Source of the DNA: Thermoplasmatota archaeon
GTDB taxonomy: Archaea; Thermoplasmatota; E2; DHVEG-1; B18-G2
Direction: 5' to 3'
NCBI GenBank assembly: GCA_029259115.1
Contig: JAPDJO010000005.1
Coordinates: 1 to 46,297, forward strand
Length of the DNA stretch: 46,297 bases
Positions 2,594-23,073 of this stretch are shown here, one piece after another (position 1 is the stretch's first letter; each line of letters begins with the position of its first letter). The translations under genes and the position numbers were made by a program. Below the pieces are notes generated by a model, which ran no database searches, was not told the origin of the DNA, and worked only from the letters and a program-made list of their open reading frames with translations.

Positions 2594-4462
2594 TTATCCA
2601 GCAAATTTTGCCCTTTGAGATAGAAGCAATGGTAATGGCAATCTATCTTGAGGATATCCTTTAGTTCTTTTCTTAATCAGTTCAAAAATATCCTCTAGAG
2701 TATACTCTTCTCTACCATCGTCTAACTCAGCCTTTCTGAATCTAGGTTTAAATTTCTCACTCTCCTTCTCTTTTTCTCCAACTACTATGATTATAGGAAT
2801 CCACTCTCTTTCTGCCTCTCTTATCTTCTTTGCAACACTCTCCTCTCTATCATCTATATCAACTCTAACCTTGATACCATCTCCCATGTTTTCTAGTTCT
2901 TCTGCAAACTTCCTGCAATCCTCAACAAATTCCTGACCAACTGGAATAAATCTAACCTGTGTTGGAGATAGCCATAGAGGAAGCATCGGCTTTTCTCCCT
3001 TGTTCATCTTCATTGCTTCTCTTTCAAGGAGGGCATAAAGGCATCTATCAATACTTCCAGATATGCTCGCATGAAGAATGTAAGGATACTTCTCTTCCCC
3101 TTCCTTGTCAACATACTTTATACCAAACCTCTTTGCATTCTCTACATCTATCTGAACCGTAGATAAAGCGCTTGCTTTGTTCGTGGTATCTATAACATTA
3201 AACTCAAACTTCATCACGAAGTAAAAGTATCTTTCATCCCATATCTCAACCAGTGCAGGTCTTCCAACTAACCTCACCAACTCCTTTGCGAACTCCTTGT
3301 TCTCCTCATAAAAATCTCTTACAAACCTTATTGCAACCTCATAATCCAGACCAAGAGCTTTCATCCATCTCGTCGATGCCTCAAACTGCCTCTTGAACTC
3401 TGCTTTTGCCTGCTCCATATCTGCGCAGAGTGTATGCATATCAGGCATGGTAAATGCTCTCAATCTCCTCAATCCAGATAACTCTCCGCTCTGCTCCCTC
3501 CTGAAACTATAGTGCGTAAGCTCGTATAACCTCAACGGCAGATTCTTATAAGATATTATCATATCCTTAGCTATCATATACTGCCCGAAGCAAGCCGCAA
3601 ATCTCAAGAAAAACTCCTTTTCATCAGATTTAACAATATACTGTCTGGCTGGAAACTTCTTTACATACTCACTCAGAGCTGGATGTTCGATATCATACAT
3701 TATAGGCGTTTCTACTTGCATCCCTCCAAGTTCTTTACAGATCTCTGTCACGTATCTTTCAAGTAAACCTTTTACTAACCTACCTTTTGGATACCATCTG
3801 AAGTTTCCAGAATCGCTACTTTCTTCATAATCTACCAATTCTAATCTTCTCATTATCTTAATATGGGCAGGCTCTTTAGTTGCTCTTCTGCTTCCTTTGC
3901 TTTCATAGTCATATAGAATCTTGAGTTCAGGATAGTTTGAGTAATCGAAATCATCCGCATCCATGAGTTCTCCTTCAGGAGTTAGTATATACCAATGAGA
4001 AATCACTTCCTTCTCCTTTTCAACAGCTGTTTTTTCTCTTTTTGGAGATACGTCTCTTGATAATTCTGACAAGGGATGACCTTTACAGGATATCCTGAAA
4101 GCCTTGTACCATCCAAAAGGAGATCTCTTCACGTTGAAACTCGCTTTCAATTTTTCCTCTATACTCCTCAGAATTTCCATCGCTATTTTTGGTCTGGCAA
4201 GATCAGGTGAGAGATGGGCATAGGGGTAGAGCATTATGTTTTTTACCTTGAGCTCATTTGCGACTTTTTCTATCTCTTTGCAACTACTCTCTGCAGCTCC
4301 TTCAGGATCCTTTTCATCCTTTTTTTCTACAGCTATAAAAGCGACCAAAGCTTCATCCAGTCTACCTTTCTTTTTTTCCTCATCGATTTCCTCTGGATTC
4401 TTTATCGCTCTACTTTTGACCTCGTATTCTATAAAATCACTATGTATCAGCAGTAGTTTCAT
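2594..4462 (-). CDS. thrS: Threonine--tRNA ligase (archaeal type, N-terminal editing domain)
   Basis: [53 protein letters not shown]. Confidence 0.97.
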
Positions 4463-4510
4463 GCAAAACCAGAAAGAGCTTTAGCTTATTAAAGCTAATC
4501 TTTCAGTTAT

Positions 4511-4590
4511 GGGGGAGGCGGCGGAGGTGCCCCACTAGCACAAGAAGTAGCGAGTGCATCCCCAGTGCAATCCCATCTCTCCGCCTGAGT
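4511..4590 (-). ncRNA. Candidate structured non-coding RNA (unassigned); also holds a 13-codon micro-ORF
   Basis: 50/77 GC over 4511-4587 in an AT-rich intergenic gap; outer stem GGCGGAG/CUCCGCC; inner G-U-containing hairpin that pairs well only on the minus strand; TTCATAAA box upstream. Confidence 0.55.
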
Positions 4591-4643
4591 TTCGAATTAA
4601 ATTAGAGATTTATGAAATTTTCGCTTCGCTTCTTTCTGCAATT

Positions 4644-5585
4644 TTAGATTTCCCTGAGTAGATCTCTTATAGCTTTCCTTACCGCCTCATCCGACTCGTA
4701 TTTTGGTTTCCATCCTAAAGATTTTATCTTCTCTATGTTGAACTGAAATCTAGGAACATCCCCCTTCCATCCTCTATCTCCACCTGTATACCTGAATTTG
4801 ACATCTTTCAATCCCATCTCTTCCACGACCATTTTTGCTATATCATTAACCTCTGTTGCTCCTTCGGTACCAAGGTTAAACAGATTTATTTGATCAGAAG
4901 ATCTTTCAAAACCAAATAGCATACCATCTATGCAATCACTGATGTAAAGATATGACTTCTTTTGTTTTCCATTTCCAAGAATCTCTAACTCTTTTGGGTT
5001 TTTCCTTAACTTTTTTATGAAATCAAAGATCACTCCATGCGTAGATCTTGATCCAACAACATTTGCAAATCTGAATATCCATCCCTTCATATCGAAGGTG
5101 TGACAGAAAGATGAAATCAACGCTTCACATGCAAGTTTTGCCGCACCATATACAGATATCGGTAAGAGAGGACCATAATCCTCTTTCAATGGTACAGGTG
5201 GAGCTTCCCCATAGACCGTGCTACTAGAAGAAAAAACTATATTTTTCACATCTCTCTTTCTCATTGCATCCAACAAATTATAGGTTGCTAGAATATCTAT
5301 CTTGGATATCTCTGGCATTTTTTCTCCAAGTCTTACATCAGGAATAGCTGCCAAATGAAAGACAACATCATAACCTTCTTTCAACTCTCTATCTATTACA
5401 TCACCATCCAAAAGATCAGCCCTTACCAGTTTGAAGTATCCCTTTCCTACATGATGTTGTATAAAATCTTCCCTACCAGAGCTAAAGTTATCATAAACTG
5501 TAACTTTTTCATATCCTTCATTGGCTAACCTATCAACCAGATGCGACCCTATAAATCCTGCTCCTCCAGTCACTAAAGCTCGCAT
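4644..5585 (-). CDS. NAD-dependent nucleotide-sugar epimerase/dehydratase (GalE-like extended SDR)
   Basis: TGGAGFIGSHL, YGAAK (YxxxK), FRFANVVG. Confidence 0.93.
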   Translation of the reverse strand: MRALVTGGAGFIGSHLVDRLANEGYEKVTVYDNFSSGREDFIQHHVGKGYFKLVRADLLDGDVIDRELKEGYDVVFHLAAIPDVRLGEKMPEISKIDILATYNLLDAMRKRDVKNIVFSSSSTVYGEAPPVPLKEDYGPLLPISVYGAAKLACEALISSFCHTFDMKGWIFRFANVVGSRSTHGVIFDFIKKLRKNPKELEILGNGKQKKSYLYISDCIDGMLFGFERSSDQINLFNLGTEGATEVNDIAKMVVEEMGLKDVKFRYTGGDRGWKGDVPRFQFNIEKIKSLGWKPKYESDEAVRKAIRDLLREI

Positions 5586-6901: not shown

Positions 6902-6984
6902 CCTAATCACCTTCGGATATAATCTCAAACTTTATTTATAAGTTTTTTATTTATAAATTTTTCTATATAGAAATCGTAGGGAGA

Positions 6985-7059
6985 CGGACCCGCCGGGATT
7001 CGAACCCGGGACCTGCAGCTTAGGAGGCTGCCGCCATATCCTGTCTAGGCTACGGGTCC
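6985..7059 (-). tRNA. tRNA-Arg(CCU)
   Basis: Acceptor GGACCCG/CGGGTCC, anticodon arm GCAGC-CT-CCT-AA-GCTGC, T loop GGTTCGAATCC; CCA not encoded. Confidence 0.97.
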
Positions 7060-7736
7060 ACCTCTACCGTAAAGCTAACGCTAGCATTACCCTGCAAGTC
7101 CCTTAATCTAACAACTTCTACTTCAATATTTCTGGATCTAAGATGCTCTTCAATCCCTGGAATATGCCCATCTCCAACAAATGCTATTATCTTTTCATAC
7201 TCCCTGGATAATTCTTCCAATCTTTTCGCCATATATTCGTTCCTCTCATCTATCAAAACCCTCTTTAGAGAGGGAAAACTCTTTCCTATTTCTTCAATGA
7301 CCTCATCTACTCTATCCTTAAACTTGTTGATCTCCTTCTCTATGGTCGATCTCCTGCCTATGAGACCAAATATGCCAGAGAAAATAATCCTGAATTTTTC
7401 TCTTAGACTCATACTCTTCCAGAACTTTCTGAATATCTCCTCTGCATCCATATCTATGAATTTTACAGGTATGCCTTTACTTTTGGCTAGATCTATTGCT
7501 GTAATCATCTCTTCTCCAACTCTTGTACCATACCACTCAGCTACTCTCTGTTGGAATTTGGATAAAATTCTGTACATGATAGGAATATTTCTGCTATCCT
7601 TGTCACCTGACATCATTGCTGCAAATCTTTTTTCATCTAGCTCGACGCACACAACATCTGGAGATTTTTCTTCTATTAGCTGAATGATCTTCGAAGACAG
7701 ATCAAACACATGTCCCGTTCCTACTAGAATGATCAT
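7050..7736 (-). CDS. TraB/PrgY/GumN-family protein
   Basis: MIILVGTGHV, VCVELD, GEEM, LIDERNEYMA, VGDGHIPGI. Start at 7736; the stop overlaps tRNA-Arg. Confidence 0.88.
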   Translation of the reverse strand: MIILVGTGHVFDLSSKIIQLIEEKSPDVVCVELDEKRFAAMMSGDKDSRNIPIMYRILSKFQQRVAEWYGTRVGEEMITAIDLAKSKGIPVKFIDMDAEEIFRKFWKSMSLREKFRIIFSGIFGLIGRRSTIEKEINKFKDRVDEVIEEIGKSFPSLKRVLIDERNEYMAKRLEELSREYEKIIAFVGDGHIPGIEEHLRSRNIEVEVVRLRDLQGNASVSFTVEVDP

Positions 7737-17691: not shown

Positions 17692-17723
17692 ATTTTAGGA
17701 TTGATGTGTAGAAAAACCGAGAG

Positions 17724-17796
17724 CGCCGCCTGCCGGATTCGAACCGGCGACCTCTCGGTTAACAGCCGAGTGCTCCACCAGCTGAGCTAAGGCGGC
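17724..17796 (-). tRNA. tRNA-Asn(GUU)
   Basis: Acceptor GCCGCCT/AGGCGGC, anticodon arm CTCGG-CT-GTT-AA-CCGAG, GGTTCGAATCC. Confidence 0.97.
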
Positions 17797-22998: not shown

Positions 22999-23073
22999 CG
23001 GACGCGGCGGGATTCGAACCCGCGACCACTGGCTTAGAAGGCCAGCGCCCTATCCTGGCTAGGCCACGCGCCC
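22999..23073 (-). tRNA. tRNA-Arg(UCU)
   Basis: Acceptor GGGCGCG/CGCGTCC, anticodon arm CTGGC-CT-TCT-AA-GCCAG, GGTTCGAATCC. Confidence 0.97.

Follow-up and report, generated by a model that had tools for sequence, protein, structure and literature searches.

The element described here is nearly letter-for-letter conserved across one order of uncultured Thermoplasmata archaea and is very probably a small RNA gene in its own right, representing a new family. It lies in a gap of 181 nt between an epimerase-like ORF and thrS, the threonyl-tRNA synthetase gene, in the window, i.e., the whole stretch of 46,297 nucleotides that was analyzed (Table 1). The element belongs to an uncatalogued family and to a wider superfamily of promoter-driven RNAs in the class Thermoplasmata, whose members have in common a TATA box, a 5' end rich in G that contains AUGGG, a pyrimidine/U tract, a CCUCC-type C/U-rich segment, and a 3' CCCAU. 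The best explanation overall is a conserved, separately promoted minus-strand RNA gene that would pair in trans through its C/U-rich segment; it is held tentatively, at somewhat less than an even chance.

The element stands out by composition in the 46-kb window (39% GC). A scan of the whole window for 77-nt segments of GC ≥ 0.62 returned four islands, the element and three tRNA genes, and the G+C count at 4511-4587 is 50 of 77 nt, as stated in the first-pass annotation of this DNA, which had likewise compared the value with that of the tRNAs. A covariance model of the family (R1) matches the window at 4505-4588 with an E-value of 3e-21, and its own genome carries one full-length copy.

Strand and start are indicated by the promoter. 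A TATA-like box ends 21-26 nt before the pyrimidine-A step preceding GGCGGAG in all 24 copies examined, mostly together with a CGAAA-type BRE, and the box of the window aligns with CGAAA-N-TTATATA at an equal distance. Because a TATA-like box precedes the pyrimidine-A step and GGCGGAG, the minus strand is taken as the coding strand and A4586, the pyrimidine-purine step immediately preceding GGCGGAG, as the likely start; judged from its sequence and spacing, 4608-4623 would be the small RNA's own promoter. The earlier annotation had read the minus strand, a call upheld by the conserved promoter alignment, and had placed a TATA-like box at approximately 4608-4615, where the box is indeed present although its coordinates were one base off. 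Four metatranscriptome runs of one study contain the stretch as contigs whose RNA or DNA origin is indistinguishable; one RNA-library contig spans the element and thrS, and a contig of a relative spans the epimerase gene through thrS, both of which may equally be DNA. No conclusion on expression is drawn from these contigs, as ends, strand, and level are not shown by them and the libraries may contain DNA.

Table 1. Features of the window and of related loci (positions in the window unless a contig or locus is given).
Feature	Position	Strand	Remarks
thrS (threonyl-tRNA synthetase)	2594-4462	minus	ORF list; tblastn; conserved downstream neighbor
TATA-like box of thrS, TTTAATAA	4486-4493	minus	23 nt before ATG
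Predicted small RNA, ~80 nt	4507-4586	minus	start A4586, extending at least to CCCCCAUAA at 4507; 3' end is a lower bound
CCCAU	4509-4513	minus	proposed partner of AUGGG; terminal part of invariant tail GCCUCCCCCAU
P1, 3' strand CUCCGCC	4520-4526	minus	partner of GGCGGAG
Alternative helix, 3' strand GCACCUCC	4523-4530	minus	4-nt overlap with P1 3' strand; carries C/U-rich CACCUCC
13-codon ORF MGLHWGCTRYFLC	4535-4576	minus	ATG 4576, TAG 4535; not a gene
Alternative helix, 5' strand GGGGAUGC	4556-4563	minus	competitor of P1 for CUCC
AUGGG	4572-4576	minus	proposed partner of 3'-end CCCAU
P1, 5' strand GGCGGAG	4579-4585	minus	pairs with 4526-4520
Putative small-RNA promoter	4608-4623	minus	BRE-like CGAAAA 4623-4618; TATA-like TTTCATAAAT 4617-4608; ~21-22 nt before predicted start
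Epimerase-like ORF	4644-5585	minus	upstream neighbor of element
tRNA-Arg(CCT)	6983-7060	minus	GC island
tRNA-Asn(GTT)	17723-17796	minus	GC island
tRNA-Arg(TCT)	22999-23073	minus	GC island
Hairpin RNA candidate of own genome	C3:47044-47110 (L253:1045-1111)	plus	between convergent genes; TATA ~23 nt upstream
Further hairpin RNA examples	L260:801-873, L261:773-834, L249:622-690
tRNA-Ala(GGC) complement of tail	contig C16 26198-26208 (own genome); L231, L233-L236, L243, L245, L247

The search for homologues that had been proposed with the annotation returned the element in all 40 relatives compared by BLAST, with a similarity far exceeding that of the flanks. Two blocks, TCAGGCGGAGAGATGGGATTGCA (4588-4566) and CACCTCCGCCGCCTCCCCCATAA (4529-4507), are 100% identical between genomes of different families, while the approximately 36 nt separating them are variable; in an alignment of 78 copies, columns 4-10, 12-19, and 71-89 are almost wholly invariant. 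Over the same order, the identity of ThrRS drops to 57%. The R1 model, built from 19 copies and run on a sample of 151 genomes of the class, found the element in 4/4 genomes of family f1, 65/67 of f2 (the two genomes without a match are 80% and 86% complete), and the single genome of f5, and the third family of the order, f3, has it in both of its genomes. Elsewhere in the class sample, R1 matched 1/13 genomes of f10, weakly, 1/25 of f4, 0/32 of f6, and none in the remaining small families; the f4 match sits in coding-like sequence and was not accepted as a member. On a 151-genome sample of the phylum, nothing credible was found outside the class, the two weak matches there being without a promoter and coding-like by eye. 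In a public genome collection, the matching archaeal records are all titled Thermoplasmata, Thermoplasmatales, or Thermoplasmatota MAGs, for instance, SG8-52-3, whose lineage we take to be Marine Benthic Group D, and the bacterial rows of that scan were dismissed as chance matches, the pattern being loose and the DNA rich in GC.

Known RNA classes do not account for the element. Rfam 15 gave three tRNAs and nothing else in the whole window at gathering scores and no match in the region 4440-4660 at E ≤ 10, including tRNA, H/ACA, T-box, and other riboswitch models, so the novelty that such a match would have removed is kept; six homologous loci at E ≤ 1 returned the flanking tRNAs only, and five paralogue loci at E ≤ 5 returned one chance snoRNA match elsewhere. 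ARAGORN called the three known tRNAs of the window and none at the element. Of the 78 copies, none has RUGAUGA or UGAUGA, none has CUGA among the 25 nt that close the aligned RNA, and none has ACA at up to 3 nt from the 3' strand of P1; no K-turn, C/D, or H/ACA signature was present in any copy. The first-pass statement that the element is neither a tRNA nor a bearer of C/D or H/ACA signatures agrees with ARAGORN, Rfam, and this box scan alike. An earlier description of the element was likewise not found in the literature searched, in which subscription journals were not covered.

A protein-coding role fails on the ORF itself. The annotation had offered a Cys-containing micropeptide, MGLHWGCTRYFLC, as one reading of the element; the 78 copies would encode 58 distinct peptides of 2-22 aa, with MG-stop in six copies, and no frame is conserved. 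Only the first two residues (MG) are common to all copies, eight frames stay open to the end, and the nucleotides at synonymous positions are also conserved. A decayed tRNA was rejected as well, as neither ARAGORN nor the Rfam tRNA model matches, and so was a MITE or palindromic repeat, given one full copy in its own genome and the conserved gene order and promoter.

The outer stem P1 (GGCGGAG/CUCCGCC), whose two strands were found where the annotation had put them, is paired in 78/78 copies. Its sole compensatory change in this set occurs in G042, with GGCAGAG/CUCUGCC, i.e., a change on both sides. The structural statement with the best support is the two-fold idea, already present in the annotation as a GGGG stretch competing for CUCC: the competing helix GGRGAUGC/GCRYCUCC is retained in 5/5 genomes of the window's genus, where every change at its three variable positions keeps or improves the pairing, it shares the CUCC of P1, and forced folds of the window copy have similar energies (-24.9 vs. 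-27.4 kcal/mol). An equivalent helix is present in two other genera (G005 and G006), with A-U in one against G-C in the other. The inner hairpin CUCGCUA/UAGUGGG of the annotation is present in the window, but it is lost in three of the five genomes of the genus. A further pairing, AUGGG/CCCAU, would cross P1 and give a pseudoknot in the window's family; it is kept in 95.9% of cells over the 78 copies with zero covariation and stays at the level of a proposal, as it never varies. On neither strand did the single-sequence folding energy surpass that of shuffles (z = 0.29 and 0.73). Applied to 19 copies, RNAalifold detected no covariation, the flanks being invariant, and chose a different register, which was rejected because the 1-2-nt insertions of two paralogue types (A and B, below) break it. 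Covariation, which the annotation had suggested as a check, is thin since the paired letters hardly vary: the pairing counts yield one compensatory change in P1 and none in AUGGG/CCCAU. The middle of the f2 copies is AU-rich and almost unstructured, with a U run of 4-10; a run of at least four U is present in 77/78 copies, the exception being the copy of the window, which reads CUUCUU and has no U run longer than two.

The neighborhood of thrS is the most constant feature of the genomic context. Of the main-type copies, 74 are followed by at least 800 nt of sequence; in 71 of these, from two families, the thrS ATG lies 47-171 nt downstream (tblastn), with a commonest spacing of about 59 nt and most values between 55 and 72. 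A separate TATA-like box is found 29-45 nt upstream of the thrS ATG in 64 of the 71 linked copies, and this proximal box would, from its position, give a leaderless or near-leaderless thrS mRNA. The copies located away from thrS comprise both f3 copies, which precede a polyprenyl synthase-like gene, the f5 copy (G042), one f2 copy (L078), all f10 copies, and two paralogue types in one f2 genus: type A has one additional U following CUCCGCC, while type B has UU at this place and a CCCCUA tail. The linkage to thrS, which the annotation had named as a mark of a cis element, is therefore tight in main-type copies but not constant over the family. The annotation's idea of a cis leader of thrS is favored by the linkage and weakened by the separate TATA-like box of most thrS genes and by the unlinked copies. 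We interpret the linkage as a gene order that has been retained, possibly accompanied by read-through into thrS, and do not take it for the main role of the RNA.

The weak R1 match in f10 led to a sister subfamily, found in 11/13 f10 genomes and, in some, as a second copy. Its layout consists of a TATA box, GGGAAUGGGG, an A/U hairpin, GCCUCCCARCCU, CCCCAUUCCC, and a U run directly after the stem. The closing stem has 10 bp and is 100% paired, with G-C replaced by A-U in three paralogues and A-U by G-U in one genome, and it is formed by AUGGG and CCCAU, the same letters as in the window's family. In several genomes, the f10 gene is flanked by intron-bearing tRNA genes (L190-L200; e.g., L190:1499-1573, minus), namely tRNA-Gly(GCC) and one that ARAGORN calls Tyr, Ser, or Asp, a label that varies because this tRNA has an intron.

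A pattern search for the superfamily (ATGGGG-N20-80-CCCCATYC) extended the picture to hairpin RNAs. Among the matches listed, the first 150 of about 620 and all from f1 or f2, most genomes of these families carry 1-6 hairpin RNAs of 55-70 nt, and individual subtypes turn up in different genera with one copy per genome; since each recurs in this way, the subtypes behave like paralogous genes, unlike mobile repeats. A G/C clamp of 10-14 bp (GRAUGGGG...CCCCAUYC) closes a large loop with a U run and a conserved C/U-rich motif, often CUCUCCUCACCACCUYC, and a TATA box stands at the right distance in 9/9 paralogous hairpin RNAs examined. The CACCUCC of GCACCUCC is also found in the loops of many of them. 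The candidate of this kind in the window's own genome (Table 1) is closed by the stem GGAUGGGGG/CCCCCAUCC, and its loop contains CCUCCUCUCCUCAUCCCUCC and a U5 run; two relatives, one from the genus and one from the family, have it conserved, and Rfam gave no match to it. The pattern occurs in 139/151 class genomes, a tally inflated by chance matches in GC-rich families; in two f6 genomes and one f8 genome, 0/18 matches resembled the RNA, and two f4 genomes share one plausible superfamily member. The proposal of a novel sRNA in the first-pass annotation is supported by the lack of an Rfam match, the TATA box in the copies examined, order-wide conservation, and paralogues away from thrS.

Searches for pairing partners gave little. 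A scan of its own genome for at least nine contiguous pairs with the C/U-rich 23-mer revealed no convincing target, the best trans match lying in Gly-codon-like sequence and the remaining matches being ordinary Shine-Dalgarno-like stretches, and a tally of Shine-Dalgarno contexts showed no extension fitting the loop motif. In a rough test of pairing with rRNA, using part of the 16S and the 23S of a relative, the duplex energies did not surpass those of shuffled queries. A search of five relatives for sequences perfectly complementary to the loop motif of the paralogues mostly led back to the hairpins themselves. Own-genome LSM-domain matches number three, and Ro (TROVE, PF05731) has no match in this genome, which is 98.7% complete.

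Several side observations were made in the same searches. The tail GCCUCCCCCAU has an exact complement, AUGGGGGAGGC, at positions 37-47 of tRNA-Ala(GGC) in f1 and f2 (Table 1); it may be due to chance, and the match was set aside because this part of the tRNA is itself paired and a match of 11 nt is not far from chance. A relation to tRNA-Thr, with whose 3' half a 9-mer is common, was also judged to be chance, the structural register being different. The relative G021, in 7 contigs, has 93 matches to GGAGGTGGTGAGGAG at up to two mismatches, while four other relatives have 2-11, an excess that may reflect a higher GC content or Gly-rich coding repeats. The 94 contigs of the window's own genome yielded neither 16S nor 23S rRNA signature motifs, and 47 ARAGORN calls with introns allowed include no tRNA-Met, tRNA-Trp, or tRNA-Tyr; these absences probably reflect assembly gaps or unusual introns.

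On the preferred explanation, the RNA would act in trans by base-pairing: the invariant C/U-rich segment CACCUCCGCCGCCUCCCCCAU would pair with purine-rich mRNA stretches such as ribosome-binding sites and block translation initiation. The G-rich 5' arm may mask this segment through P1 and AUGGG/CCCAU, the accessibility of the segment might switch between the two folds as P1 or GGGGAUGC takes the same CUCC, and the U tract could serve as a landing site for an Sm-like (Lsm) protein. C/U-rich segments recur in every subtype seen, which supports trans pairing, but much of the segment in the window's family is paired in P1 and not displayed in a loop, and a plain anti-Shine-Dalgarno role does not fit all members because the loop motif of other subtypes is CCUCACCACCUYC or GCCUUCUA; antisense action through the C/U-rich segment is a possible mode that stays doubtful when taken on its own. 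Regulatory sRNAs usually drift in sequence, so a fixed partner, such as a protein or the ribosome, would explain the order-wide invariance of the element no less well than antisense does. Such a partner is central to the unlikely alternative of a protein-bound RNA, i.e., an RNP scaffold or decoy, in which proteins would bind the sequence-specific G/C clamp (AUGGG/CCCAU), the U tract, and the C/U-rich segment, the candidate partner being an Sm-like protein or a factor that normally binds a pyrimidine-rich rRNA end. The two 20-nt blocks invariant across the order are typical under such a constraint, and the stem, conserved in sequence beyond pairing across subtypes, the f10 copies lying among stable-RNA genes, the presence of LSM genes, and the empty mRNA target search of its own genome all point the same way, yet the only consistently adjacent protein gene is thrS, none of the 78 copies shows a K-turn, C/D, or H/ACA signature, and the genome has no TROVE/Ro protein, which argues against a Y-RNA-like particle.

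Two further explanations were considered. In the first, the element acts in cis on thrS: read-through from the upstream promoter would carry a structured leader that tunes expression by competing folds or ThrRS binding, a logic akin to that of the E. coli thrS operator; the adjacency in nearly all main-type copies and the two mutually exclusive helices suit it, as do the lack of a strong U run between element and thrS in the window and the RNA-library contigs bridging both (if these are not DNA). It is nonetheless improbable, given the TATA-like boxes at leaderless distance before thrS, the copies that are not thrS-linked, the f10 RNAs ending in a U run right after the stem, and the absence of any T-box or riboswitch match. 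Very improbable, lastly, is a group of readings that comprises the micropeptide gene, a chance GC patch, a decayed tRNA, and a palindromic repeat or MITE. In their favor, there is indeed an ORF, with GGAG in front of it, the superfamily has inverted-repeat ends and several copies per genome, and the single-sequence fold does not exceed shuffles, while the diverging peptides with conserved synonymous positions, the single copy with its conserved gene order and promoter, the tRNA searches without a match, and paralogue subtypes that are each conserved across genera instead of being scattered as near-identical copies speak against one or another of them. Beyond the preferred trans-pairing gene, a broader and decidedly unlikely reading is a class-wide, multi-gene family of Thermoplasmata housekeeping RNP RNAs, whose invariant pyrimidine-rich segment would engage the translation apparatus with the two folds as a switch; the segment would then contact the small subunit or the factors that mature it, or else initiation regions generally. 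If true, the RNAs would not regulate particular genes but would give archaea a new, global layer of translation control.

The near-total invariance over an order, the several recognizable paralogous subtypes, and the tight thrS linkage are unusual. To our knowledge, few archaeal small RNAs are conserved beyond the genus, and almost none have been described for uncultured sediment Thermoplasmata; here, Rfam has no entry for an RNA gene that stands out in its genome as much as a tRNA does. The covariance model is ready for use, and the element is a candidate for transcript mapping, protein pull-down, and target capture as well as a test case for whether C/U-rich regulators associated with Sm-like proteins serve archaea as Hfq-dependent sRNAs serve bacteria.

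The closest archaeal parallel is sRNA41 of Methanosarcina mazei, an intergenic sRNA that is proposed to mask purine-rich ribosome-binding sites and repress translation; sRNAs pulled down by archaeal Lsm and Lsm-bound sRNAs of haloarchaea are described as well (PMC5867862). The element resembles sRNA41 as a probably independently transcribed archaeal small RNA whose CACCUCC/CCUCC is predicted to be able to pair with purine-rich sites likewise, and differs from it in sequence, to which there is no relation, in lineage, in a motif partly sequestered by the G-rich 5' arm, and in a far stricter conservation.

RsaE/RoxS of Firmicutes and 6C RNA of Actinobacteria are Rfam families with repeated C-rich motifs that pair with G-rich initiation regions. 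The element is likewise short, highly conserved, equipped with its own promoter, and C-rich in its motifs, but those RNAs are bacterial and display their C-rich motifs in hairpin loops; no Rfam model matched at E ≤ 10, so the element is not a member of either. The E. coli thrS operator and the T-box leaders of Gram-positive bacteria exert cis control over threonyl-tRNA synthetase genes, and the element resembles them as a structured RNA immediately upstream of thrS in 71 of 74 cases; unlike them, it has a promoter separate from that of thrS, no tRNA-like anticodon arm, and no T-box motif, and its family has members away from thrS. Y RNAs and Sm-class snRNAs have their 5' and 3' ends in a conserved stem, a large pyrimidine-rich interior, and a U tract. 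Unlike these, the element has neither a TROVE/Ro gene in its genome nor detectable homology, and Sm-like binding is only putative, but the paired ends, the pyrimidine-rich interior, and the U tract are shared, especially by the hairpin-type paralogues. Set against these systems, the element represents a new family, though one of a known type, the small non-coding RNAs of archaea.
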